A stretch of DNA of 64,000 nt from an uncultured delta proteobacterium (GTDB lineage: Bacteria; Myxococcota_A; Polyangia; Polyangiales; B10-G4), in NCBI GenBank assembly GCA_963727445.1, contig CAVSGI010000009.1, positions 544,001-608,000 on the forward strand. The letters run 5' to 3'. The stretch's first letter is position 1, and every line of letters begins with the position of its first letter. The notes beneath the pieces are model-generated. The model worked only from the letters and a program-made list of their open reading frames with translations, was not told where the DNA came from and made no database searches. Both the position numbers and the translations under genes were made by a program. Of this stretch, positions 19,239 through 33,375 are shown piece by piece.

Positions 19239-20291
19239 GTGGCGAGCGCTTCAGAGTCAGCGGCGGCAGGGGTCGGCGACGGGCCGGAGACGACCGCCGA
19301 CGTCGAGGTCATGGACGCGGAGCTCCTCTTGCGTCTCTCCGGGCCGAACAGCGCGCATCTGAGGACGCTCGAAGGTGCGCTCGGGGTGAGCCTGGGCCTT
19401 CGGGGTCACACCATTCTGGTGCAGGGGCAGACCGACGCCGTCGACCAGGCGGTGCGGGTGCTCCTCGAGCTGGTCGATGTGCTGGGGCGCGGGAAGAACA
19501 TGTCCGGTGTGGAGATGGCGCGCGCGGCGCGGACGCTCCAGCGCTATCCGGAAGTGAAGCTGCGCGACCTCTTCGACGACGTGGTCCTGGTGGCGTCGCA
19601 GAAGAAGGCCATCGCTCCGAAGGGCATCGCGCAGCAGATCTACATCCAGGCGATTCGCGACTTCGACGTGGTCTTCGGCATCGGGCCGGCGGGTACCGGC
19701 AAGACTTACCTGGCGATGGCCATGGCCGTGCGCGCGCTTCAGTCGAAGCTGGTCAAGCGGATCATCCTGACGCGGCCGGCGGTCGAGGCCGGCGAGAAGC
19801 TGGGGTTCTTGCCGGGTGATCTCGCGGAGAAGGTGAATCCGTATCTCCGGCCGCTCTACGATGCGCTCCACGACATGATGGACATCGACAAGGCGCAGGC
19901 GTTGCTCGCCCGCGGCACCATCGAAGTCGCGCCGCTGGCGTTCATGCGCGGCCGGACGCTCAACGACAGCTTCGTGATCCTGGACGAAGCGCAGAACACC
20001 ACGCCGGACCAGATGAAGATGTTCTTGACGCGCCTCGGCTTCGAGTCGAAGGCGGTGATCACCGGCGACGCGACGCAGACCGATCTACCCGAAGGGCGGC
20101 GCAGCGGGTTGGCCGACGCGGCGAATCTCCTCGGAAAGATAGAGGGGATCCGCGTCTGTCACTTCACCGACGCCGACGTGGTGCGGCACCCCCTCGTGCA
20201 ACGCATCGTCCGGGCGTACGATGGGCGCGACGCCAGGCGCGAGGCGCAGCGTCAGGCCGAGGAAGAGGAGAGCGGGGGAGACGAGACGTGA
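19239..20291 (+). CDS. phoH: PhoH family ATPase
   Basis: GPAGTGKT, RPAVEAGEKLGFLPG, MRGRTL, LDEAQN and VVRHPLV. Confidence 0.95.
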   Translation: MASASESAAAGVGDGPETTADVEVMDAELLLRLSGPNSAHLRTLEGALGVSLGLRGHTILVQGQTDAVDQAVRVLLELVDVLGRGKNMSGVEMARAARTLQRYPEVKLRDLFDDVVLVASQKKAIAPKGIAQQIYIQAIRDFDVVFGIGPAGTGKTYLAMAMAVRALQSKLVKRIILTRPAVEAGEKLGFLPGDLAEKVNPYLRPLYDALHDMMDIDKAQALLARGTIEVAPLAFMRGRTLNDSFVILDEAQNTTPDQMKMFLTRLGFESKAVITGDATQTDLPEGRRSGLADAANLLGKIEGIRVCHFTDADVVRHPLVQRIVRAYDGRDARREAQRQAEEEESGGDET

Positions 20292-22255
20292 GCAACTCGA
20301 CCACGACTCGAACGCCGGGGGCGACGTCCCCAGCGGGATTCATCGCGAAGCGGATCAAGGCCGATCCGCGTATCGATCGCGATGAGATGGACGTGGTGGT
20401 GGCTGGTCAGGTGGTCGAGATCACCAAACGAGATGCGCTCCTGGTGGCGGTGCCCACCATCAGTCTGGCGCACGACGCGCTCGAGCCTTACGCGGAGCGG
20501 ATCGCCGAGGGGCGAGCGGGGCTGATCCTGGTCGGCGTTCCCCCGACCGGGTTTCTCGAGACGCTGCCCGAGCGTGCGGTGGTGGCGTTGGTCGACGGGA
20601 CCTTCGGCGACGACGCGCTCTACCTGACCTTTCAGGGGATGCTCGAGCGGGTGGAGATGCGCCTCACGGACGACCGCCGGCGGCGCACCCTCGATCGCTA
20701 TCGGTACGAGCTGGGCGAGCTCGTCGAGATCGCGCGCGCCTTGAGCCAGGAGCGCGACACGTCGCGCCTGCTGAACCTGATCCTCGAGAAGAGCCGATTC
20801 ATCACCGGTGCGGATGCCGGGAGCATCTACGTCCTGGAAGGGGACGATCCGGACTTCATGAATCGGAAGCTGCATTTCAAGCTTTCGCAGAACGAGTCGT
20901 GTGAGTTCGAGTCGAGCGAGTTCACCATGCCCGTGTCGACCCGGTCCATCGCGGGCGCGGCGGCGGTGACGCGTTCGCCGATCAACATCCCGGACGTCTA
21001 TCGGATCCCCGAGGAGACCCCGTACGGGTTCGACAAGAGCTTCGACGAGAAGGTCGGCTACCACACCAAGTCGATGATCACGCTGCCGATGATCTCGGCG
21101 GAAGACGACGTCATCGGGGTGATTCAGCTCATCAACAAGAAGAAGCACCCCGAGAAGCGACTGGTCGAGAAGGCCGACTTCGATGCGGAGGTCGTGGAGT
21201 TCGGCGAGCGCGAAGAGGAGCTCCTGCAGACGCTCGCCTCGCAGGCGGGCATCGCGCTCGAAAACGCGCTCCTCTACGAGGAGATCAACCGCATCTTCGA
21301 GGGGTTCGTGCGCGCGAGCGTGCAGGCGATCGAGCAGCGCGATCCCACGACGAGTGGTCACTCGCTCCGGGTGAGCGTGCTGTCGTGCCGGCTGGCCGAG
21401 ATCGTGGATACGGTCGATGCCGGGCTCTACGCGGACACCAGCTTCACGCGGCGGCAGATCAAGGAGCTCGAGTACGCCTCGCTCCTGCACGATTTCGGGA
21501 AGATCGGCGTGCGCGAGAAGGTGCTGGTGAAGGCGAAGAAGCTCTATCCGCACGAGCTGGCGGCGGTGCGGGCGCGATTCGACTACCTGCTGAAGGCGGG
21601 CGAGGTCGAGATGCTGCAGACGAAGATGCAGCTCGTGGCGTCGGGCGCGTCGAAGGAGGAGCTCGAGGCCGCGGAGATGGCCTACGAAAAGAAGCGAGGC
21701 GAGCTGCAGGGCGCGTATCAACTGGTGCTTCAGGCGAACGAGCCGACGGTGATGTCGGAGGGCGACTTCACGGCGGTGGGTGCGCTCGCCGAGCGGACCT
21801 ACGTGGGGCCGGATGGATGCAGCCATCCACTTCTGCACGACAACGAGGTGAAGTCGCTTCAGGTGACGAAGGGGTCGCTGAACGATCAGGAGATCGAGGA
21901 GATTCGATCACACGTGACGCACACCTTCGACTTCTTGTCGCGGATCCCGTGGGGCAAGACGATGCGTTTCGTGCCGCAGATCGCCGGCGCCCACCACGAA
22001 AAGCTCAACGGCAGCGGCTACCCGCGCGGCGTCAAAGCGGACGCGATCCCGCTCCAGTCGAAGATCATGACCATCGCAGACATCTTCGACGCCCTCACCG
22101 CGCGCGACCGCCCCTACAAGAAGGCCATGCCCGTCGAGCGCGCCCTCGCCATCCTCGGCTACGAAGTCAAAGACAACCACATCGACGCCGAGCTCGTCCG
22201 CCTCTTCACCGAAGCCAAAGTCTTCGAAGCCGTCCAAGACGACCTCTCCTACTAA
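20288..22255 (+). CDS. GAF + HD-GYP cyclic dinucleotide phosphodiesterase
   Basis: GAF domain (GVIQLINKK); TSGHS, LHDFGK, HHEKLNGSGYP and DIFDALT..RPYK. Confidence 0.9.
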   Translation: MSNSTTTRTPGATSPAGFIAKRIKADPRIDRDEMDVVVAGQVVEITKRDALLVAVPTISLAHDALEPYAERIAEGRAGLILVGVPPTGFLETLPERAVVALVDGTFGDDALYLTFQGMLERVEMRLTDDRRRRTLDRYRYELGELVEIARALSQERDTSRLLNLILEKSRFITGADAGSIYVLEGDDPDFMNRKLHFKLSQNESCEFESSEFTMPVSTRSIAGAAAVTRSPINIPDVYRIPEETPYGFDKSFDEKVGYHTKSMITLPMISAEDDVIGVIQLINKKKHPEKRLVEKADFDAEVVEFGEREEELLQTLASQAGIALENALLYEEINRIFEGFVRASVQAIEQRDPTTSGHSLRVSVLSCRLAEIVDTVDAGLYADTSFTRRQIKELEYASLLHDFGKIGVREKVLVKAKKLYPHELAAVRARFDYLLKAGEVEMLQTKMQLVASGASKEELEAAEMAYEKKRGELQGAYQLVLQANEPTVMSEGDFTAVGALAERTYVGPDGCSHPLLHDNEVKSLQVTKGSLNDQEIEEIRSHVTHTFDFLSRIPWGKTMRFVPQIAGAHHEKLNGSGYPRGVKADAIPLQSKIMTIADIFDALTARDRPYKKAMPVERALAILGYEVKDNHIDAELVRLFTEAKVFEAVQDDLSY

Positions 22256-22603
22256 CGGGGACGGTCTACACTTTTCAACTTTCTCCGCCGGTTTCGCGCC
22301 CTGCGATCGCGATCCACCGGGGACGGTCTACACTTTTCAACTTTCTCCGCCGGTTTCGCGGTCGCTGACACCCCGCGATAGTGCGCTCATCACCATTTCG
22401 ACGTGCTTCAATGCCTGAGCGATCGATCCACCGGGGACGGTCTACACTTTTCAACTTTCTCCGCCGGTTTCGCGGTCGCTGACACCCCGCGATCCACCGG
22501 GGACGGTCTACACTTTTCAACTTTCTCCGCCGGTTTCGCGGTCGCTGACACCCCGCGATAGTGCGCTCATCACCATTTCGACGTGCTTCAATGCCTGAGC
22601 GAT
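22256..22603. repeat. Left-end array: four copies of the 28-bp end motif, each with a different length of transposase 3' end
   Basis: Copies start at 22256, 22318, 22432 and 22498; the first three duplicate about 43, 106 and 62 bp of the true end. Confidence 0.95.
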
Positions 22604-23552
22604 GGCGGCTTCGTTCCGGTTGAGCAGCGCCGAAGCGGCTGAGTCGCTGATTCCCAAGTGCGTGGCCATTTCACTGGCGTTTCGATTCAGGCCACGCGAC
22701 CACACGATGACCGCAACGCGACGAGCCGTGGTCAGAGTGCGCAAGCGGCTTCTGGATCTCATTGCGGCTTCATCGACCCCGAGGACGCGAGCCACGACGT
22801 GAACCACCGTTGCACAATCCATGGGCTCAGAGTTGCGACTCGGCAGCGAGGGGGGAGCAACCACCGGCACACGCATGAGCTGACCGTGGTCGTCCAAGTC
22901 GAAAACGGGCGGCGCGACTTGCACCGGGCCACCGGATTCGTGGCGGGCCTCTCGTTGTAGCCGGGGGATTCTGTCTCCCGCTGAGGGCATCGTTTCGAGG
23001 CTCTTCGCGGTGTCGGTTTACGAATTCGTCGAACGACTTCCTGCCGGAGGCACGACTGCTGAACCCCGACAGCTCCAGCCCGAGTTCGATGTGGAGCCAC
23101 GAAGGGGCGCCGGTCGGCTCGAGGTAGAGCCGGTGGGAGGTCCAGCTCGACTCCCGCGCCAACCTCACCACTCCGGCCCGCGGGGGGTTGTTGCTGACGT
23201 AGGACACCAGATAGCCAACAGCGTCGGCGCCACAGATGATGGTCGTGGGACGGCCCGCGAACAGAGGCCCACGGCGTTCCTGGCGCTTGTTCATCCACGT
23301 CGCGAAGCCGCCGTTGAGCGCCTTCATGAAGCCCTCGAGATCGAGCGTGCCAGCCATGGCCACCAAGTGGATGTGATTGCTCATCACGCCATAAGCGATG
23401 ATGCGCCAATCGGTGCGTGCCATGACAATGCCGAGCCGCCGGAGGTATTCGCCGCGTTCTGCCGCGCAGGTGATGCGGAAGCCCCCGTCGACGAAGCGAC
23501 AGACGATGTGGACGATGGAGCCTGGAGGTAGGAGTCGAGGTTGCCTGGGCAC
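22517..23552 (-). CDS. REP-associated tyrosine transposase (RAYT, Y1_Tnp) with a C-terminal DnaA_C-like HTH; frameshift at about 22960-23000
   Basis: MPRQPR start; MSNHIHL (HUH); GPLFAGR; SYVSNNPPRAG (Y..NP); WTSH. The second frame gives VARVLGV..RSRSR..TARRVA..SEMATHLGISDSAAS. Confidence 0.85.
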
Positions 23553-23598
23553 GACCCCTTGTCGGCTGGTGAGCGGCGAAGTTGCGGACCTGAGCGAC

Positions 23599-23772
23599 GA
23601 AAGTTGAAAAGTGCAGACCGTCCCCGGTGGCGTGTCCCCGGTGGCGTGGTGAGTGGCGAAAGTTGAAAAGTGTAGACCGTCCCCGGTGGCGCCGTCCCCG
23701 GTGGCGCCCGGTCCCCGGTGGCGCCCGGTGGCGTGGTGAGTGGCGAAAGTTGAAAAGTGTAGACCGTCCCCG
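23599..23772. repeat. Right-end array: three inverted copies of the end motif interleaved with GTCCCCGGTGGCG units
   Basis: GAAAGTTGAAAAGTGYAGACCGTCCCCG at 23599, 23658 and 23745. Confidence 0.95.
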
Positions 23773-25290
23773 TTAGCGCATGATGGCTACTAGGGTGGCG
23801 GTGATGATGGCGATGAGGATGCTGGCGCCGGCGACGGCCAGCCAGTTGACTTTGGATTGGGGGCGCGTGGGGGGGATGGCTGCTTGGGGGTAGGAGAGCT
23901 CGCTCCAGTTCGGGCGGTTCATTTCGACGGTCCGGGCGGTCTCGATCTTGTCTTCTCGGGCGGGAGGGGTGGTGCGTTTGTCGGTGGTGCCGATGGCGTC
24001 TTCGAGGGTGGTGCCGGCGTCGCCGCCCGGGGAACCGTCGACCTCCTCCGGTAGGATGAGCGGCTTGGTGGGGCTGGCCTCGAGGTCCTGCGGCGCCTCG
24101 CCGCGAAGCGCCGCCATCGCGCGGCTCGGCGGCGGGCGTCGCCCTCCATCACTCGTCGGGTTCGTGTCCCGCTCCGAGATCGACACCGGCTCGAGCGCTC
24201 CAGGTGGCGGCGTCAGATCCATCGCCGTCCGCCGCATCGTCCGCTCGCCCTCCATCGGCTCGCTCGACCCCAGCTCCTCACTCAGCTCCACCGACACCTG
24301 CGTCGGCGCCGACTGAATCTCGTCCACGTCGTCGTACGCTTCCCGCCGCCGTCCCGACTCGGACGGCTGCCGGTGCCTCCGGCTCCCCTGACCCAGCACC
24401 TCGTCGATCGCATCGTCCAGGGTCTCGAAGACCACGCCCCCCGCGAACGGCTCGAGCGCCAGTCCCAGGGTGCGAATCGACGGGTAGCGGTCGTCCGGAT
24501 TCGGCGCCATCGCCTTCAGCACCACCTCTTCGAGCTTCTCCGGCACGTCGATGTTGATCACCGTCGGCGGTCGCGGATCCGTGTTGGTGATCTTGAAGAA
24601 GAGGTCGGGTAGCGAATCTCCGTCGAAGGGCAACTCGCGCGTCAGCCCTTCGTAGAGCATCACCCCCACCGAGTACACGTCCGCCCGCTGGTCTACCGTG
24701 CTCGAATCGGCGATCTGCTCCGGCGCCATGTAGTACGGACTCCCGAGGAACGTCCCCGCGCCCGTCAGCTTTCCGGTGGCATCCGGATCGCGCAGCTTCG
24801 AGATCCCGAAGTCGAGCACCTTCGCCCCGCCGGCGCGCCCGCGCCTCGGCAGGCACAAGAAGATGTTGTCCGGCTTGAGGTCGCGATGCACCACACCACG
24901 TTCGTGCGCCGCGAACACACCGCGCAACGCCGGCATCAACGTCTGCACCAGATCCTTCGGGCTCGGCGCCCCGCGGTCGAGATACTCCCGGAGCGACTCC
25001 CCGCGTAGCAGCTCCAGCACGAGGTAGAGCGACTCCTCGTACCGCCCCGCGTCGTAGATCTCCACCACGTTCGGATGGTCCACCGCGTTCGCCGCCCGCG
25101 CCTCGCGCAGGAATCGCGACGCCACCGTCGGATTCTCCGCCAGCTGCGGGTAGAGCCACTTCAATGCGACCCGCTTGCCGATCAGCTCGTGAGTCGCTTC
25201 GAAGACGACTCCGGCCGCACCCTTGCCGAGCTGCCGCTCCAGTCGATACTTCTCGGCGATGACCTCTCCGGGCTCGGGGACATCACTCAC
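23773..25290 (-). CDS. Ser/Thr protein kinase with a C-terminal transmembrane helix
   Basis: GKGAAG, VALK, HRDLKPDN, DFG and GSPYYMAPE; GTG at 25290 preferred. Confidence 0.92.
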   Translation of the reverse strand: MSDVPEPGEVIAEKYRLERQLGKGAAGVVFEATHELIGKRVALKWLYPQLAENPTVASRFLREARAANAVDHPNVVEIYDAGRYEESLYLVLELLRGESLREYLDRGAPSPKDLVQTLMPALRGVFAAHERGVVHRDLKPDNIFLCLPRRGRAGGAKVLDFGISKLRDPDATGKLTGAGTFLGSPYYMAPEQIADSSTVDQRADVYSVGVMLYEGLTRELPFDGDSLPDLFFKITNTDPRPPTVINIDVPEKLEEVVLKAMAPNPDDRYPSIRTLGLALEPFAGGVVFETLDDAIDEVLGQGSRRHRQPSESGRRREAYDDVDEIQSAPTQVSVELSEELGSSEPMEGERTMRRTAMDLTPPPGALEPVSISERDTNPTSDGGRRPPPSRAMAALRGEAPQDLEASPTKPLILPEEVDGSPGGDAGTTLEDAIGTTDKRTTPPAREDKIETARTVEMNRPNWSELSYPQAAIPPTRPQSKVNWLAVAGASILIAIITATLVAIMR

Positions 25291-25344
25291 GTCTAAAGAG
25301 TATCCCCAGCGATGCTCACCGAGAAGGGTGTATGGTTCCCCCGG

Positions 25345-26250
25345 ATGGACGACCGCATCCACGATGGCGTTCTCGATCTCGTCGGCCGAACCCCCCTGGT
25401 GCGCCTCTGCAAGCTCTCACCCGAGGGCGGCGCCGAGGTCTGCGCCAAGCTGGAGTCCGCAAATCCGGCTGGCAGCGTCAAAGACCGCCCGGCCCTCTCG
25501 ATGGTCCTGGCGGCCGAGGCCGCGGGCGAGCTCGCCGACGGCGCGACCATCGTCGAGGCCACCAGCGGCAACACCGGCATCAGTCTCGCCATGATCTCCG
25601 CCGTTCGCGGCTATCGTTGCATCCTCGTCATGCCCGAGGACATGAGCCTCGCCCGCCGCGAGATCCTCCGCCTCTATGGGGCTGAAGTGGTCTTGACCCC
25701 GGCCGAGGAGGGAATGGCGGGCGCCGTCGACCGCGCCGAGGAGATCCGCAGCGCCGAAGGCGCATGGATGACGCGCCAGTTCGAAAATCCAGCCAACCCC
25801 GAGATCCACGCGATCACCACCGCTGAAGAGATCTGGCGCGCGACCGGCGGTTCCCTCCACGCTTTCGTCGCGGGTGTCGGCACTGGCGGCACCCTCACCG
25901 GCGTCGGCCGCGTCCTCAAGGAGCGAAACCCCGACATTCGCATCTACGCCGTGGAGCCACGCGCGAGCGCCGTGCTTTCCGGAGGTAGGCCCGGACTGCA
26001 CGGGATCCAGGGCCTGGGGGCGGGCTTCGTCCCGGAAGTGCTCGACCGGGCGCTGATCGACGAGGTCCTGACCGTCACCGATCTGGCCGCGGAACGCTCC
26101 ATGCGTCGCCTCGCGCGCGAAGAAGGCCTCCTCGTGGGGCCCTCCGCGGGCGCCAACGTCCACGCTGCCATCGAGGTCGCCGACGCGCTCGAAAAGGGCC
26201 AGCGCGTCGTCACCATCCTGTGCGACACCGGCGAGCGCTACCTCTGCTGA
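25345..26250 (+). CDS. cysK: Cysteine synthase A
   Basis: NPAGSVKDR, TSGNTG, GVGTGGT and HGIQGLGAG. Confidence 0.93.
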   Translation: MDDRIHDGVLDLVGRTPLVRLCKLSPEGGAEVCAKLESANPAGSVKDRPALSMVLAAEAAGELADGATIVEATSGNTGISLAMISAVRGYRCILVMPEDMSLARREILRLYGAEVVLTPAEEGMAGAVDRAEEIRSAEGAWMTRQFENPANPEIHAITTAEEIWRATGGSLHAFVAGVGTGGTLTGVGRVLKERNPDIRIYAVEPRASAVLSGGRPGLHGIQGLGAGFVPEVLDRALIDEVLTVTDLAAERSMRRLAREEGLLVGPSAGANVHAAIEVADALEKGQRVVTILCDTGERYLC

Positions 26251-27079: not shown

Positions 27080-27910
27080 ATGCAACACCGGCTTCGAGCG
27101 CTCGTCGCAGTCTTTCTCGCCCTCTTCTTCGTGGTCCTCGCTGCGTCGGATGCGAGCGCGCAGCGCCGCCGTCGACGCCGTCGCCGGCCGCCCCAGGAAA
27201 CGCAGCAGACCGAACAGGAGACCCCCGACGCGGGCCAGAGCAGCGCGGAAGGCGCCGCCGAAGGGCAGGTCGCCGGCGACGGCGATGGCGAGGGCGAAGC
27301 CGAGCTGCCTCCCGCCGAGTTCGAAGGCGGTGACGCCGCGGACGAGACTGAAGGCGCTGCCGCATCGGCGAACGAGTCGGGTGAAGGCGGCGCTGGCGCG
27401 GTCTACGAGGAAGAGGAGGAAGGCCCCGACCTCGGCCCGATCCGCGAGGAGTTCACCGCCATCATGGACGAGCTGGTACAGGTACGGAGCCGCGTCGCGG
27501 TCCTCGGCCGCCAGCTCTTCCGCACGCGGATGCGCGTGGTCGTCCAGAACCGCGCCGGCGACGACCAGACCCTCGCCAAGCTGGTCCTCAAGCTGGATGG
27601 CGCGCCCATCTTCCAGGGCGAGGGCCGCGAGGTTCCGGAGGACGGCGCCCAGGTCTTCGATGGATTCGCCGCGCCCGGCCCCCACGTGATGACCGTCGAG
27701 GTCGAGCAGCGCGCCCGCGCCGACGACGACTATCGCTACGAGCTCCGCGACACCTATCGCTTCCAGGTCATCCGCGACCGGCTCATCGAAGTGGAGATCG
27801 TCCTCGACGACGACTCCGACATCGCGGAGGACTTCGCCGACGACGAGGAAGGCGAGTTCGACGTCCGCACGCGCATGCGGGTCGCGACGAGGGCGCTGGG
27901 CGACGACTGA
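27080..27910 (+). CDS. Secreted hypothetical protein (acidic linker, coiled coil, beta-sandwich-like domain) in the Glt-like operon
   Basis: Signal peptide (ASA-Q), poly-Arg run, acidic linker; stop overlaps the next start (TGATG). Confidence 0.7.
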   Translation: MQHRLRALVAVFLALFFVVLAASDASAQRRRRRRRRPPQETQQTEQETPDAGQSSAEGAAEGQVAGDGDGEGEAELPPAEFEGGDAADETEGAAASANESGEGGAGAVYEEEEEGPDLGPIREEFTAIMDELVQVRSRVAVLGRQLFRTRMRVVVQNRAGDDQTLAKLVLKLDGAPIFQGEGREVPEDGAQVFDGFAAPGPHVMTVEVEQRARADDDYRYELRDTYRFQVIRDRLIEVEIVLDDDSDIAEDFADDEEGEFDVRTRMRVATRALGDD

Positions 27911-29983
27911 TGCTCCGGGGCGCGCTCACCATCCTCCTCTGTCTCGCGGCCGCCGCTCCGGCCTGGGCGCAGGACGGCGATCTCCCGCCGCCCGAGTTCG
28001 GTGGGAGCGATCGTGAGGCGGCCGGCGAAGATGCCGGCGAGAGCGCCGCGTCCAACGATGAAAGCGACGTCACCCCCCTTCAGACCTATCTCACCGCCCT
28101 CGCCGATCGCCGCCTGCTCTCGGAGGAGACCGGCTCGGTGGAGCGCCTGCGCGAGCTGGTGCGCACCGGCGAGGACCTGTACCTGAACGAGCGCTATGGC
28201 GAGGCCGCCCTCAACCTCTTCGAGGTCGCGGAGAGCCCGCAGTTCGCCGACTTCGTCGACCTCGACGAGTTCCGCGGCGCCGAGTTCATGCTGGCGCGCA
28301 GCCTCGAGCAGCTCGGCGCGCTCCGCACCGCGTCGCGCTATCTCGAGAAGATCATCGAGCGCGGCCCCGACGACGTCTACTTCGGCCCGGCGATGCGCAA
28401 GTACGTCGACGTCGCCCTGGCCAGCGGAAACATCGCGGCCGCGATTGAGCGTCTCGACGATCTCGGCGCCGGTGACATGGACATCACCGACGACAACGAG
28501 AACGAGATCTTCTACCTGCGTGGCCGCGAGCGGTACACCGAGGGCGACTTCGGCCCGGCCGAGGAGTTCTTCTCCGAGATCACCCGGCGGAGCCGCTGGT
28601 ACGCCGCGGCCCAGTATCTGCGCGGCGTGATGGCCGCCCGGCAGGGCGACCTCGAGACCGCAGAGAACCACTTCTGCACCATCGCCGAGCAGGGTGACGA
28701 CGACCGCTTCACCTTCTACGTCGACGACCGCTACTTCGAGGTGAAGGACCTCGCCCGCCTCGCCCTCGGCCGCGTCGCCCACGAGGGCCTGCGCTCGGAC
28801 GACGCCTTCTACTACTACTTCCAGGTCCCCGCCGACTCCGAGCACGTCGCCGAGGCCCTCTTCGAGGCCGCCTACTCCATGTACGAAGGCAACGACATGG
28901 AGACCGCGATCGACCTCCTCGACCAGCTCGAGGCGCGCTTCCCCCAGTCGGCCTGGGTCGACGAAGCGTCCCTGCTCCGCGGCTACGTCCACCTCGGCCG
29001 CTGCGAGTTCGAAGAGGCGAGTCAGCTCTTTCAGCGCTTCGCGACGCGCTTTCAGCCCATCGTCGAAGAGATCGATTCGATCCTCGAGAGCCCCGCGCGT
29101 CAGGAGGGCCTCTACGAGGAGCTCCTCGCCGAAGAGGACGCGCCGCCGCCGACCGAGGGTGAGGAGCTGGACACCACCACCCGCGGTCTGCTTCTCGCGA
29201 TGCTCCGCGTCGACCCGCAGTTCTACCGCCTGCATTCCGACGTCCGCACCCTCGACGCCGAAGCGGCGCGCGCGGGTCGCCTCTCCAACGACGTGCGCGC
29301 GATGCTCGGCCGAGTGCAGGGCGAGGACGCCCCGGTCGCGGCCGCCGAGCTCGACGACGGCTATGACGAGATCGGCGAGGTGCGCCGCGAGGTCGACGAC
29401 GCCAAGGCGGTGCTCCGCAGCCTGACGGCGCAGGTCGACGCGATGCGCGCCGCCGGCGCCAGCCGCGATCAGCATCGCGCCTCTGAACGAACAGCTCACG
29501 GCCCTCGGCAATCGCATCGGTGAGCTCGAGCAGCGCTTCCGCCACACCGCCGCCGAGCTCCGCGAGCCCACGTCGGTCGCCGGCGGCGAGGGCGAAGGCG
29601 AGCTCGAGTCGCTCCTCCGCCACGACATCGCCAGCGCGCGCCGCCTCCCCTCGCGCGTCGCAGCTGCGCGCGCGCACATGATCGACGCGGCCAACGACGC
29701 CGCGCTCCACGGCCTCAGGCAGCTCCGTGGTCGGGTCGGCGGCGAGCTCCGGCGCGCGCGAATCGGTCGCATCGACGCGGTCATGGGCAGCAAGCGCCGC
29801 GTCGAGATCCAGATCGAGAGCCTCGCGGCCGGTCGCTTCCCGCCGGAGCTCCTGGACCCGCTCCGCATCCAGGGGCTGCTTCGAGACGACGAAGAGTATT
29901 GGCCTTTCGAAGGGGAGCTCTGGGAAGACGAGTTCGACGAGACCGATCCCATCGACGAGCTCCTCGACGAGGAGGAGGAGTGA
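27910..29983 (+). CDS. GltC/NfsC-like TPR protein; frameshift at about 29473
   Basis: Signal peptide, TPR units and C-terminal EYWPFEGELWEDE motif. Confidence 0.7.
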
Positions 29984-29985
29984 GG

Positions 29986-32900
29986 ATGATCCGCGCGGTC
30001 GTCCTCGCGCTCCTCGCGAGCGCTTCGATCAGCGGCGTGGCGTCGGCGCAGCGGCCCGACCGCAACATGAGCCGTTTTCAGGAGGCGACCGAGGAACGGC
30101 AGATCGCCGCGCCCGGCGGCGGCGACGACTCCGTTGACGAAACCACCACTACCTCCGTCAGCGGCTCGCCCGAGAACATGGAGGACGCGCTTTACCTCCG
30201 CGAGCGCGCCGACAACCTCGGCGAGGCGGCTCGCGCCTTCGAAGACGAGCAGCTGCAGCAGCTCCTCCACTCGCGCGAGCAGCTGGTGGTGGCGCGCCGC
30301 ACCGAGGCCATCCGCCTCCTCGAGGAGTTCATCTCCGAGGAGCCGGAGGAGGCCATCGAGATGCCCGACGCGCTCTTGCGTCTCGCGGAGCTCAAGCTGG
30401 GAGCTCGCCCGCGCGAACTACATCGAGACCTTCGGCGCCTGGCAGCAGGTCCCCGAGGCGAACCGCGGCCCTCAGCCCCACCCGGACTACGGCGAAGCGG
30501 TCGCCGCTCTACGACCGCATCCTCGAGCATCACCGCGACTTCGATCGCTACGACCTGGTCCTCTACATGAAGGCCTACGCCTTCGTGGAGAAGGGCGAGA
30601 TGGACAACGCCCTCGTCCTGTACCGGCGCATCCTCGCCGAGTTCCCCCAGAGCCGCTTCGTCCCGGACGCGCACTTCGCCCTCGCCGAGAGCCAGTTCGG
30701 CGGCGCCTACGACTACGCAGCTGCCCTCGAGGAATACGAGAACGTCCTTCGCTACGAGGACAGCGGCCTCTACGACGTCGCCCTCTTCAAGAGCGCGTGG
30801 TGCCTCTGGCGTCTGAACCGCAGCCAGGAGGCCGCGCAGCGCTTCCGCATGGTGCTGGACCTCGGCCAGAACCGTCAGAACCTCACGGCGCAGCAGCGGC
30901 GCCGCCTCGAAGAGCTGCAGGACGAAGCCCTCAGCTACCTCATCCAGGTCTTCACCGAGGACGAGAGCAACTCCGCCCAGGACGTCTTCGATTTCCTCGA
31001 GGAGATCGGCGGCGAGCGCTACGCGCACCGCGTCCTCAGGCGTTTGTCCGAAACGTATGTCGGTCAGGCGCGCTACGAGAGTGGGATCGAGGCCTACGAG
31101 CTGCTCCTCGAGATGGACCCCATGTCGCCCGACGCGCCCAAGTACCAGCGTGAGATCGCCGCCGCCTATGCGTCGATGGGCCAGGACCAGAAGACCGTGG
31201 AGGCGCTCGAGACGCTCGCCTCCACCTACGGTCGCGGCAGCGCGTGGGCGCGCAACCAGGCCGACCCCGAGCTGGTGCGCAGCGCCCAGGCCCTGACCGA
31301 GCGCGCAGATCCGACGCCAGGCCTTGATGGCTGGCACGAGGTAGGCCAGCGGGAGAACCAGAACCCACGTCTCGAGCAGGCCGCGGCGCTCTACGAGATC
31401 TATCTCGAACACTTCCCGCGACTCCGAGAAGGCCTACCAGATCAACTTCTACATCGGCGAGATCCTACTTCCACCGCCTCGAGCGATTCCCCGAGGCCGG
31501 CGACGCGTACCTGGCGGCGGCACGCCTCAACCCCCAGGGCGAGCTCACCCGCGACGCGCTCTACAACGCCATCGGCGCGTTCGAGCGCGTTCGTGAGAAC
31601 GAGCTCCAGCACTGTGGGCGCGGCGGAAGCGGCAACGCGCGCCGCAACCAGCCGGAGCAAGCGGCCGAAGAGTGACGAAGGCGGCGAGGGTGACGAGAGC
31701 GAGGGAGAGTCCGCCGCGTCGAGCCCGAGGAACGGCGCCCGCTGCGGCGAGAGCGCAAACGACCGCAAGTTCAGCTCGGCCATCAGCTCTACGTCGAGCT
31801 CTTCCCCAACGACCCGGACCTGCCCGAGATCCTCTTCCGTCAGGGCAGGCTCTACTACGACCGCGGCATCTACGACCCCGCCATCCGTCTCTTGGGCCAG
31901 CTCCTCGACCGCTTCCCCAACAGCGACTACGCGGAGCCGGCGGGCGAGCTCATCCTCGACTGCTTCAATCGCGCCGACGACTACCAGAACATCGAGACCT
32001 GGGCGCGCCGCCTCAAGGGTGCCCCCGCTTTCTCGAGCCAGGCGGCGCAGACGCGGCTGAACGGGCTCATCCTCCAGTCGGTCTTCAAGCTCGGCGAACA
32101 GCTCGCGAATCGCGGCGAGCACTCCGAGGCCGCCGACGCCTACTTCCGCGCGGCCGAGGAGTTCCCCACCGACGATCGGGCACGCCAGGCCTATTTCAAC
32201 GCCGGCGTCGAGCGCCAGCGCGCGGGGGATCTCGGCGGCGCCGCCACCGCCTACGACCGCCTCATCGAGCGCTACCCCGGCACCGACGAGGGTGCCCAGG
32301 GCGCTCGCACGGCGGCGCAGATGTACGAGTCCATCGCGCAGTTCTCCGACGCGGCCCGCTACTACGAGGCCTACGCCGAGAGCTTCCCCCGCAAGGAGTA
32401 CGCTGCGGACTCGCTCTACAACGCCGTGCTGCTTCGCGTCACTGCCGGCGACGACAGCCGCGCGGTCGAGGACGGCAACCAGTTCCTCGAGGCGCTTCCC
32501 CCGCCACGAGAAGAAGGACGACGTCTACTTCTTCATCGGTCGCGCGCAGGAGAACGCCGAGAACTGGGGTGAAGCGGCGTCGACCTATCGGCAATTTCAT
32601 CCGCAGCACCCACGACCTCGACCTCAAGGTCGAGGCGACGACGCGCCTCGGAATGGTCCTGTCCGAGGACGGCAACCAGCGCGGTGCGGCCAGCGCCTTC
32701 GAGGACGCGGTGCGGCTCGGAAGGCGCAACGCCGCGCGCCTCAACGCCGGGCTCTACTACGCTGCTCAGGCGCGCTACCTCCAGGGCGAGGCGGTGCTCC
32801 ACGAGTACGAAGCCGTGCAGATCGCCGGTCCCACCGAGGGCCTGACCCAGCGCCTGCAGCGCAAGGCCGAGCTCCTGCGTCGCGCCGCCACCATCTTCAC

Positions 32901-33375
32901 CGATGTCGTCTCGTTCCAGGTGGCCGAGTGGGTGACCGCCGCGCTCTTCCAGATCGGCCGGAGCTTCGAGACCTTCGCCGCCGACCTCAACAACCAGCCC
33001 ATCCCCGAAGGCTTCAACGAAGAGGAGGAGGCGAGCTACCGCGACCAGCTCTATCAGTTCATCATCCCGATGGAGCAGCAGGCCATCGACGCCTACACCG
33101 GCGGTTACGAGAAGGCGATCGAGCTGCAGATCTACAACCGGTGGACCGCCAAGCTCCGCGAGGGCCTGACGCGCCTCGACGACCAGACCTATCCGCCGCT
33201 CCGCGAGATGGGCGGGCAGATCGTCGAAGGCGTTCCCCTCGCTCCGCCGCAGCCGCTCGACGGTCTGCGCCGCGGCTCGGAAGGCCAGCGATCGAACGAC
33301 GAGGCTGACGGGGACGACGAAGACGACCAGGCCGACGACGAGGGCGACGACGACGGACAGGAGGGCGAGTCATGA
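29986..33375 (+). CDS. GltD/AgmU/NfsD-like large TPR protein; at least seven frameshifts
   Basis: Signal peptide; PDALLRLAEL; ALFKSAWC; C-terminal AEWVTAALFQIG...PMEQQAIDAY..GYEKAIELQIYNRW. Indels near 30397, 30504, 31419, 31465, 31615, 31785, 32495 and 32595. Confidence 0.75.

Follow-up and report, generated by a model that had tools for sequence, protein, structure and literature searches.

Silent sites in genes next to the terminal repeats of a Y1/HUH transposase element carry a strand-specific footprint in the genome of an uncultured delta proteobacterium (G000). On the strand running toward a repeat, silent sites are C/A-rich for ~280 nt and then G-rich, with a decay over about 3.6 kb in the pooled old loci, and the pattern surrounds 53 repeat loci, most of them without a transposase. 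We regard it as very probably a substitution bias caused by the element, as read from standing composition, and the mirror-image shift suggests that DNA at the end repeats may be nicked again and again and re-copied with errors.

We analyzed a window of 64,000 nucleotides (contig CAVSGI010000009.1, positions 544,001 to 608,000) in which two convergent host genes flank the element:

20288..22255, + strand: host gene with GAF and HD-GYP domains (Pfam HD_5, GAF; open reading frame)
20757..21985, + strand: left far zone, silent sites G-rich on the strand toward the element, fading farther out (residual +0.23 at 400-1500 nt)
21985..22255, + strand: left near zone, silent sites C/A-rich (residual -0.28)
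22257..22526, + strand: left terminal repeats, four copies (22257, 22319, 22433, 22499), 28 nt, GGGGACGGTCTACACTTTTCAACTTTCT
22517..22990, - strand: transposase C-terminal part, Bac_DnaA_C-like helix-turn-helix (PF08299, E 1.1e-5; alignment A1, model positions 191-336)
22827..23552, - strand: transposase (TIRYT) N-terminal part, Y1/HUH (PF01797 above cut-off; alignment with 27 homologues)
23598..23771, - strand: right terminal repeats, three copies (5' ends 23625, 23684, 23771)
23773..24082, - strand: right near zone, 3' end of the kinase gene, C/A-rich on the coding strand (residual -0.34)
23773..25362, - strand: Ser/Thr kinase host gene (Pkinase)
24082..25290, - strand: right far zone, toward-running strand G-rich (residual +0.33)
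25312..26250, + strand: PALP gene (cysteine-synthase-like), directed away from the element (Pfam, sequence listing)

A distance of 1 nt separates the TAA stop of the HD-GYP gene from the outermost left repeat, and that of the kinase gene from the right repeat. Gene calls in G000 are home-made; both skewed genes are Pfam-confirmed and can be aligned to their orthologues right to their ends, and the changes are synonymous. The HD-GYP gene has one full-length match in the genome. A same-genus orthologue of the kinase gene, with no element downstream, is free of skew.

An earlier note on this DNA had described a mirror-image switch in both genes, ~300 nt from the element, between codons ending in G or T and codons ending in C or A. 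We confirm the switch. In the HD-GYP gene (20288-22255, +) the change point is best placed at 21985 (support 21976-22111), which is 272 nt away from the repeat; among fourfold codons ending in G or C, those with G make up 82/116 outside the switch and 6/45 inside it. The change point of the kinase gene (23773-25290, -) falls at 24082, 311 nt from the repeat (24076-24103), with shares of 99/123 outside vs 7/57 inside; permutations reached the observed split in 0/2000 cases for each gene. Third bases inside the switch are C66 A9 G15 T0 (HD-GYP) and C71 A12 G18 T2 (kinase), and the adjoining 600 nt outward hold G117 T14 of 200 and G120 T13 of 200, respectively. G versus C is thus the main effect, with smaller shifts in A and T. 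The outer zone, which the note had bounded at 21400 and 24700, extends farther, the pooled old-locus decay length being about 3.6 kb. The coding strand of the PALP gene is C-rich at third positions by the sequence listing, which a far zone carrying on along the physical strand would predict.

Ordinary gene ends show nothing comparable. With windows picked after the pooled profile was known, the studied locus ranks first of 6,714 gene junctions, and the top 8 are repeat loci without exception. None of 1,156 repeat-free convergent pairs has a near value <= -0.2 and a far value >= +0.1 on both sides (studied locus, -0.28/-0.34 near and +0.23/+0.33 far), and ordinary convergent ends, where switches of equal size might have been common, pool to -0.03/+0.007.

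Pooling 91 flanks across the genome gave a profile of -0.31 at 0-50 nt, zero near 275 nt, +0.08 at 400-1500 nt and zero again beyond 7-10 kb; the switch has a median position of 278 nt (IQR 222-317; 27/34 flanks). Genes pointing toward a repeat have a C4 of 0.79-0.74 near it and 0.45 far from it, and genes pointing away show the mirror image (0.27-0.31 near, about 0.60 far). It is therefore the physical strand that matters, which rules out transcription of the host genes as the cause and, together with the convergent-end and junction comparisons, an ordinary gene-end effect. At loci with repeats in one orientation, a near zone is present in the outer flank (-0.24) and absent from the inner one (+0.12, n = 84 sites). 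The footprint has its anchor at the 5' (outer) side of the repeat and goes with the physical strand. Its proposed centring on the element accordingly applies to the terminal repeat and not to the transposase gene, as dozens of transposase-free repeat dimers have the footprint. The shift is of similar size in all 8 codon boxes, and a weaker footprint of the same form surrounds a second repeat family, which has a transposase of its own.

Two comparisons bear on whether the skew follows the arrival of the repeat. We divided loci into old (unique spacers) and young (a shared-spacer subfamily at 19 loci), age being inferred from spacer sharing. All 38 flanks of old loci are negative (mean -0.25) vs 10/19 at young loci (mean -0.01; p = 7e-6), with young copies at a median of 167 nt from genes and old copies at 3 nt; a weak residual far signal (+0.03 to +0.07) is present at young loci. 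We also compared G000 reciprocally with another genome of the genus (G001), between which fourfold sites are saturated (0.42-0.54 of sites differ in the larger classes). Where the repeat is in G000 only, the values in G000 and G001 are -0.34 vs -0.08 near (6 genes) and +0.23 vs 0.00 far (18 genes); where it is in G001 only, the near zone is -0.17 in G001 vs -0.05 in G000 (27 genes) and the far zone is missing (-0.03 versus 0.00). The single site occupied in both genomes has no footprint in G001 (+0.22, 28 sites). Element-free orthologues, which might have shared the pattern, thus lack both zones, and the results support a build-up of skew after the repeat arrives, in keeping with the suggested long-term origin around a resident element rather than a recent insertion. 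Foreign DNA brought in by the element was rejected as a source, since the near zones correspond to host-gene C-termini that the orthologues share. A repair-gene difference between G000 and G001 was uninformative (MutL in both; Y-family IMS hits, 3 vs 1).

The element is a TIRtron, with a Y1/HUH transposase and DnaA-type helix-turn-helix between non-hairpin GGGGACGG terminal repeats. The name RAYT first given to it has to be replaced by TIRtron/TIRYT, and we rejected a canonical REPtron (GTAG-type REP plus RAYT) because the repeat has neither a hairpin nor a GTAG foot. A single repeat has a folding energy of 0 kcal/mol and contains an inner direct repeat, ACTTT-TCA-ACTTT. Its end agrees with the TIRtron motif GGGGWSAS at 7/8 positions; position 7 is G, a variant that is also dominant in related loci. 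The locus carries 4+3 copies in inverted orientation around the transposase gene, the left copies within local tandem duplications and the right ones with short reiterations of flank+GGGGAC(GG) at 23618-23723. The N-terminal part of the transposase has the HUH motif SNHIHL and a conserved Tyr118 in YVSNNP; H60, H62 and Y118 are invariant across 28 aligned sequences. Homology is lost in this frame near 22960-22985, and the helix-turn-helix, with a PF08299 match under the curated cut-off, lies in another frame. Homologues are mostly single chains of about 280-380 aa. The transposase of the repeat family is frameshifted in the source assembly, either as a pseudogene or through an assembly indel. 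The dispersed repeats total 176 copies over 53 loci and occur singly, in dimers and in clusters. Target-site duplications at the repeat edge were absent from 35/39 paired loci and 1 nt long in 4, a result that excludes a classical MITE or DDE insertion sequence. A plasmid search for homologues found distant ones only.

Other genomes repeat the footprint in part. Related genomes and Neobacillus, which were independently assembled and whose genes were called blind to the tested letter, have the near zone again; a strong far zone is confined to G000. Related loci with unrelated inner repeat sequences (L090, L124, L142) have near zones of -0.36 to -0.49, and the far zone at 49 related loci is inseparable from baseline. 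In Neobacillus T falls from 0.32 to 0.20 near the repeat and A rises, and the far zone is missing. Micropruina (14/29 flanks negative) and Faecousia (16/25) lack a clear near zone despite many repeats, and a GTDB sample gave only 37/64 flanks. E. coli REP clusters have a weak skew of opposite sign (+0.06 toward and +0.17 away at 0-100 nt) in a 450-kb sample (43 clusters; 9 tiles of 50 kb, partly picked in regions expected to be REP-rich), so the E. coli REPs are not a general case of the footprint.

The substitution spectrum bears on how the skew was made. Twofold sites show both a G>A and a T>C shift. In a toy mutation-selection model that assumes equilibrium and a simple baseline, deamination or transitions alone give a C4 of 0.55-0.63 vs 0.83 observed; the model needs T>C plus a G>C transversion excess. 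Of the two kinds of mutagenesis proposed earlier, cytosine deamination alone is rejected in this model and error-prone resynthesis is favoured by the excess required. Among 23 short reiterations, 13 are clean tandem duplications ending at GGGGAC with an overlap of 0-2 nt (8 with none), which fits ligation better than slippage. These exact ends suggest, by inference from sequence, a nick in the outward strand followed by error-prone resynthesis. Longer duplications vary at both ends and do not indicate a single nick.

We propose that the skew is probably a mutational scar, laid down slowly around resident TIR copies as follows. The TIRYT protein would act in trans on all copies, its helix-turn-helix binding the inner direct repeats, and would nick the outward-running strand at CC^GTCCCC (the complement of GGGGAC^GG), remaining on the 5' end. 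The freed 3'-OH could then prime outward host synthesis. Flank+GGGGAC duplications would arise when very short runs (12-21 nt) are joined back onto the displaced flap. Longer runs, made by a Pol I-like or Y-family polymerase that inserts G and T too often, would replace about 280 nt of the outward strand and leave it G/T-rich as the near zone. We rate an origin of the near zone in nick-primed resynthesis slightly above an even chance. In G000, and by a weaker argument, excision or resection of the nicked strand may often continue for kilobases, and the opposite strand, single-stranded or itself re-made, would drift G/T-rich as the far zone; we consider this origin of the far zone rather doubtful. 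Several findings count against the scheme: the variable ends of the longer duplications, the C^T cut that characterised TnpA_REP makes in single-stranded hairpins, the frameshifted transposase, the weak far signal at young loci and their greater distance from genes, the footprint-free shared site in G001, the missing far zone in G001 and Neobacillus, and the genomes with many repeats but no clear near zone.

Transposase-independent damage is an unlikely rival: an inverted pair or a bound protein could cause cruciforms or fork stalling, with host nucleases and repair leaving both zones without HUH nicking. The length of the far zone matches resection or gap tracts (3.6 kb decay) and varies with the host, some unrelated G000 repeat families show a fainter profile of similar form (-0.06 to -0.10 near the repeat, about +0.055 far from it), and the toward strand of E. 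coli REP clusters has a weak G/T excess. However, two 20-locus repeat families give no signal, one-orientation loci in which no partner was detected keep a near zone on the outer side only, wide pairs (1.5 kb at the studied locus, 2.2 kb at C21) are among the strongest, and the duplications stop at a fixed base of the repeat. Transcription-associated mutagenesis, in which the outward strand is exposed by ~280-nt transcripts or R-loops that start from an outward promoter within the repeat, appears improbable. It predicts the correct strand and side for the near zone, and the reverse strand of the repeat has TTGAAA (TTGACA/TTGTCA in the second family), but a sigma-70-like promoter scan of both ends found 0, near zones are equally strong with the unrelated inner sequences of L090, L124 and L142, the away-gene mirror excludes host-gene transcription, and G>C and the far zone are left unexplained.

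Selection on RNA or DNA composition, for example for C-rich, G-poor Rho loading (rut) sites that halt transcripts before the repeat, would also build up with age, and transcripts entering the repeat do meet a C-rich, G-poor near zone. We find it very improbable: the Rho RNA-binding domain PF07497 was not found in G000 (85.6% complete) and is present in 2/31 genomes of the order (2/23 of high quality), the shift is alike in all 8 codon boxes, and the kilobase far zone crosses gene borders. Rut sites are pyrimidine-rich, whereas Neobacillus loses T and gains A near the repeat. Equally hard to credit is insertion at skew switches already present. IS200/IS605 elements favour lagging-strand templates (bioRxiv 10.1101/279083), and the G001 orthologues dip slightly below zero toward their ends (-0.08); yet young copies lack the near zone, empty-site orthologues lack both zones, and switches are almost absent off repeats (near z > 5 at 1/6,666 junctions vs 8/48 at repeats). 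Home-made gene calls and the frameshift, possibly an assembly indel, could point to an assembly, gene-calling or chance artefact, but the changes are synonymous and lie in genes that Pfam confirms and whose alignment with orthologues reaches their ends, and the pattern recurs in independently assembled genomes with blind gene calls, which makes an artefact extremely improbable.

The nearest relatives of the element are the TIRtrons (Di Nocera et al. 2013, PMC3733652), TnpA-Y1 subclass 2.1.2 of Quentin et al. 2018 (bioRxiv 10.1101/279083). It shares with them the Y1/HUH transposase, terminal inverted repeats starting GGGG[AT][CG] and dispersal as singles, dimers and clusters, has their C-terminal Bac_DnaA_C-like helix-turn-helix as a match below the cut-off in another frame, and differs in the G at position 7 from the GGGGWSAS of most, though not all, members. 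The TIRtron passages of these papers describe neither an effect on flanking genes nor a cleavage site, the word 'skew' is absent from the main text of PMC3733652, and that paper left binding and cleavage of TIRs by TIRYT to be tested. As in REP/BIME/REPIN-RAYT systems (PMC3333891; PMC5581495; bioRxiv 2021.07.10.451892), one transposase serves many inverted dimers in trans. For E. coli BIMEs a nick was proposed whose 3'-OH primes synthesis by the host before the strand is re-ligated (PMC3333891), a route that would amplify units and could capture neighbours; as a base-composition term, 'skew' is absent from the main texts of the three papers. Characterised TnpA_REP acts on single-stranded hairpins, cut in vitro at C^T (PMC3333891), unlike the hairpin-free, GTAG-free repeat here with its putative CC^GTCCCC site.

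The skew itself resembles GRINS (Nivina et al. 2021, PMC8256042), in which strong, correlated skews of G+T against C+A peak at third codon positions and switch abruptly inside 1 kb; their mechanism is stated there to be unknown, with error-prone replication proposed. GRINS are anchor-free duplicated stretches of >500 bp in genes, tied to gene conversion, whereas here single-copy genes carry the skew, and its distance from a transposase repeat and its polarity are fixed; the repeat families listed hold no >80% identity duplication of 21000-25000 besides the element ends. GC skew at the locus reaches +0.24/-0.28 and +0.33/-0.26 in 300-nt windows, a measure that differs from the GRINS criterion (mean absolute GC and TA skew >0.15 over >500 bp). 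A further parallel, grouped with the strand skew of replication origins, is the mutation footprint that Pol I leaves around the ColE1 origin (Allen et al. 2011, PMC3167613), a distance-dependent, strand-asymmetric excess of C>T and A>G on the new strand beside a priming site (C>T 140 vs G>A 29; A>G 32 vs T>C 9). That system used an engineered low-fidelity Pol I on a plasmid and decays over more than 1.3 kb with no sign switch, unlike the flip at about 280 nt and the dozens of chromosomal anchors described here.

Our literature search found no description of a silent-site skew linked to TIRtron repeats. The footprint is a genome-readable record of repeat activity and a clock for the residence time of a copy at its site. 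It points to one strand, to CC^GTCCCC as candidate cut site, to tracts about 280 nt long and to a spectrum, and each of these is directly testable in a culturable host such as Neobacillus. A neighbouring repeat can locally reset the silent-site composition of ordinary genes, which matters for analyses of codon bias, dS and skew, and the repeats provide an anchored natural case of the G+T/C+A skews seen in GRINS, where the origin is unknown. Tentatively, and at somewhat less than an even chance, TIRYT repeats may be dispersed, transposase-activated nick-and-prime sites, miniature rolling-circle-type origins that by repeated re-synthesis recode the last ~90 codons of adjacent genes, bias several kilobases in some hosts and act as a local strand-polarised mutator. 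If true, this reading would model how GRINS-type skews arise and would be a candidate host-level effect of 'domesticated' Y1 transposases. The footprint bears on the cellular role of RAYT/TIRYT proteins and on why hosts keep them.

The element lies between two convergent genes whose TAA stop codons are each positioned 1 base outside the outermost repeat.

20288-22255, + strand: GAF/HD-GYP gene, left neighbour of the element
22517-22990, − strand: transposase C-terminal ORF, in another frame and overlapping the N-terminal ORF, with a Bac_DnaA_C match below its cut-off
22827-23552, − strand: transposase N-terminal ORF, with a Y1_Tnp match
23773-25362, − strand: Ser/Thr kinase gene, right neighbour, convergent with the HD-GYP gene

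Homologues of the transposase are mostly single chains of ~280-380 aa, and their alignment shows H60, H62 and Y118 to be invariant. Two homologues are both named and assigned a taxon, labelled Deltaproteobacteria and Sandaracinaceae, which makes a myxobacterial host probable. As the gene occupies two frames here, it is frameshifted, near 22960-22985, and may be a pseudogene or an assembly error. Elsewhere in the window, a TPR-like gene run (27910-33375) is split into overlapping ORFs (29678, 29899/29986, 30567, 31892), possibly by assembly indels. The 28-nt repeat occurs in four left and three right copies, all facing inward, and a folding prediction of the single repeat gave no fold. This is a TIRtron/TIRYT arrangement (available text of Di Nocera 2013, PMC3733652), subclass 2.1.2 (available text of Quentin 2018, bioRxiv 279083). 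The repeat has two parts, a GGGGACG(G) tip that is conserved and inner direct repeats that are specific to each family. Rolling-circle origins consist of a nick site and a bind site, which this layout resembles. Target-site duplications are absent at 35 of 39 paired repeat loci.

The earlier note had correctly placed switches in codon endings at about 21980 and 24090, each ~300 nt from the element; change-point fits position them at 21985 in the HD-GYP gene and 24082 in the kinase gene, 272 and 311 nt from the repeat. Among G/C-ending fourfold codons, those ending in G number 82/116 outside versus 6/45 inside the switch in the HD-GYP gene, and 99/123 versus 7/57 in the kinase gene; 0/2000 permutations reached either switch. 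The shift is mainly between G and C, with smaller shifts in A and T. Ranking of 6,714 gene junctions, using windows picked after the pooled profile was known, places this locus first, and the top eight junctions all have the repeat. A near-zone z above 5 was found at 8/48 repeat junctions versus 1/6,666 others.

Genome-wide, the repeat is present in 176 copies at 53 loci of the genome under study (G000), which encodes just one full transposase of this family. We called 7,772 genes with a codon model of our own and scored each G/C-ending fourfold site relative to the average of its codon box. For the strand that leads up to the repeat (the toward strand), the pooled G excess of 91 outward flanks is −0.31 at 0-50 nt, −0.23 at 50-150 nt and about 0 at 275 nt (near zone), then +0.08 at 400-1500 nt and +0.03 at 3-5 kb, falling to 0 past 10 kb (far zone). 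Ordinary convergent gene ends, which the earlier note had named as a check, carry no comparable switch: the 1,181 convergent pairs without the repeat reach −0.03 and +0.007 at most, and relaxed thresholds, exceeded by the element locus, are reached by 0/1,156 pairs. Genes pointing away from the repeat have the mirror pattern on their own coding strand, which rules out codon preference and host-gene transcription as causes. Loci with repeats in one orientation have a near zone outside the 5′ end only.

A second repeat family in G000, with 68 copies at 22 loci and a transposase of its own (C10:487.6 kb), has a footprint of like shape that is weaker (−0.12 near, +0.01 to +0.04 far). Of the abundant intergenic words, 19 in all, two families of 20 loci each lack a footprint, three words show a similar but weaker shape and three more deviate otherwise; the effect is therefore strongest at TIR repeats and perhaps not confined to them. 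The overall GC skew of every large contig stays within about 0.02 of zero, and local footprints may be easier to detect for that reason. We also observed low-copy GGGGAC-type repeats of other families (G000:C11:34584, C12:24442, C12:53438-53987, C24:18650) and two further Y1 transposase genes (L002, G000:C9:167305-170535; L001, G000:C10:984238-987510) adjoining long 6/12-nt simple repeats of the TCCGTC/TCCGCG type, L002 additionally having 117-nt inverted repeats with a small hairpin. At L210 (G000:C21:405643-407849), a repeat pair surrounds ~2 kb in which two ORFs, of 337 and 460 aa, appear to be cargo; its convergent neighbours are formate-dehydrogenase-subunit-like and cysteinyl-tRNA-synthetase-like, judged by translation, and both outer flanks have a strong footprint.

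Orthologues without the element, the other check named in the earlier note, lack the pattern. From 30 HD-GYP loci, 17 homologues with long matches (35-70% identity) were compared; none has the switch or, within 70 nt after the stop, the repeat (a GGGAC word occurs in two). The same-genus kinase orthologue, with no element downstream, is neutral in composition (25/56, 43/88, 37/81), and aligned sites differ by G>C 9 to 0 in the near zone and by C>G 54 to 11 in the far zone. Reciprocally, where only G000 has the repeat, scores are −0.34 versus −0.08 near (6 genes, at loci picked as strong) and +0.23 versus 0.00 far (18 genes) in orthologues of G001, the second genome of the genus. Where only G001 has it (27 genes, taken from its transposase locus and 20 of 27 repeat loci), near scores are −0.17 versus −0.05 and a far zone is absent. 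One site is occupied in both genomes, and there the G001 copy lacks a footprint. Fourfold sites are saturated in this comparison, and the scores describe standing composition. The G001 repeats (L410-L429, L435) are related yet different, forming compact dimers whose arms are separated by a few bases; where bases vary, the two arms agree, suggesting arm-to-arm correction. The match at its transposase locus contains one TGA stop.

Of the 39 paired loci in G000, 19 have almost the same 41-46 nt spacer and are treated as young, recently spread copies; the other 20 have unique spacers and are treated as old. Among flanks with at least 12 sites, 38/38 old flanks are negative (mean −0.25) versus 10/19 young flanks (mean −0.01; p = 7e-6), with the confounder that the median distance to the gene is 167 nt for young copies versus 3 nt for old. 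With age inferred from spacers, the footprint builds up after the repeat arrives; young loci retain a weak far signal. The median distance of the switch from the repeat at old loci is 278 nt (range 163-521; taken over the 27/34 flanks where the switch is strong), and their far zone has a decay length of 3.6 ± 0.3 kb. A stop codon lies within 10 nt of the repeat in 23/40 old flanks, 13 of them TAA, against 215 TAA stops in 6,855 genes. L211 (G000:C8:197207-197390) combines a young-type spacer with a strong, old-type far zone at either side and a near zone confined to the left; it may be an old site at which both the element and the right flank have been replaced. In the young subfamily, for example at G000:C14:205806 and C21:508462, shared sequence reaches 7-9 nt beyond the repeat (GCTAAC or GCTTGAT by side). 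This is close to the size of the duplicated flank pieces, and some flank may therefore travel with the mobile unit.

Of 120 transposase loci fetched from other genomes, 49 were kept (repeat detected, GC at least 60%; 7 duplicate or doubtful loci dropped). These loci are kin and not independent; their pooled near zone runs −0.13, −0.09, −0.04, then zero, with near lower than far in 50/66 evaluable flanks and a far zone inseparable from baseline. In a GTDB scan, GGGGACGGT dimers turned up across many phyla, with the expected direction in only 37/64 evaluable flanks (80 loci with flanks, among at least 124 found). Three genomes were studied in depth, two of them picked for one strong-looking locus that was left out of the counts. 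Neobacillus cucumis (39% GC; 57 clusters in 20 tiles) has near values of −0.15 and −0.085, zero past 200 nt, 48/62 negative flanks, the mirror in away genes and no far zone. In the last 33 codons of its 31 repeat-ending genes, C rises from 0.19 to 0.28 and T falls from 0.31 to 0.20, with no end shift in 172 control genes. The near zone is not clear in Micropruina glycogenica (14/29 flanks) or a Faecousia MAG (16/25). Repeats on M. glycogenica contigs C6, C7 and C12 form tandem arrays (23-24 nt period, up to ~9 consecutive copies) lacking a near-zone footprint. The toward strand at REP clusters of E. coli K-12 (43 clusters in 450 kb; tiles L458-L466) has a weak excess of G+T, opposite in sign to the G000 near zone (z = 2.7 and 4.1 over 0-100 nt, in a small sample). 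The near zone, though not universal, extends to two phyla or more; the far zone has so far been seen in G000 alone.

At old loci, fourfold sites 0-200 nt from the repeat are C 0.83, G 0.10, A 0.03 and T 0.035 on the toward strand; purine twofold sites are A 0.34 (background 0.146) and pyrimidine twofold sites T 0.045 (background 0.156), alike across codon boxes and next-base contexts. Cytosine deamination, suggested in the earlier note, does not by itself account for this spectrum: in a toy equilibrium model G>A alone gives C 0.55 and both transitions 0.61-0.63, and ~fivefold G>C is required for C 0.81. Read on the outward strand, the changes are C>T, A>G and C>G, a gain of G and T that would fit misinsertion on a newly made strand. 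Error-prone Pol I likewise makes both transitions (C>T, A>G) on the new strand (available text of PMC3167613).

Truncated repeat starts stop after six bases in 19/42 cases, some counted twice. Clean tandem duplications, in which 6-15 nt of flank are repeated together with GGGGAC, make up 13 of the 23 short reiterations (two being copies inside one larger duplication); their overlap is 0-2 nt and, in 8, none. The ends of longer duplications vary. A nick, short displacement synthesis and flap re-ligation would produce a fixed end of this kind, free of microhomology; a similar scheme has been proposed for BIME amplification (available text of PMC3333891). Judged from sequence, these duplications would place the nick on the outward strand, the strand and direction that the near zone needs.

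The literature searched (main texts, mostly outside subscription journals) contains no description of a compositional footprint around RAYT, REP or TIR repeats, including the available text of related-system sources on GRINS (PMC8256042) and REP/REPIN-RAYT (PMC5581495, bioRxiv 2021.07.10.451892). There, the term TIRYT is confined to the available text of Di Nocera 2013 and Quentin 2018, whose supplements could contain the GGGGACGG variant. The element type is already known; the footprint, its age dependence and the putative cut site appear undescribed.

The footprint is anchored on the repeat, has a fixed polarity and strand, depends on age and is absent from empty orthologues. Repair induced by structure or forks, without HUH cutting, is an unlikely but serious candidate for its origin. 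An outward promoter in the repeat is improbable, and a promoter scan found none. Selection for Rho sites is somewhat harder to credit, as the Rho RNA-binding domain was found in 2/31 genomes of the order and not in G000; it occurs in 2/23 of the high-quality genomes, suggesting wide Rho loss in the order. We give equally little weight to a target preference of the element for such sequence, and an artefact is scarcely believable.

We favor recurrent cutting, in which TIRYT would nick the repeat again and again and the host would resynthesize ~280 nt outward from the nick, leaving the near zone. In G000, longer excision or resection may bias the opposite strand and produce the far zone.
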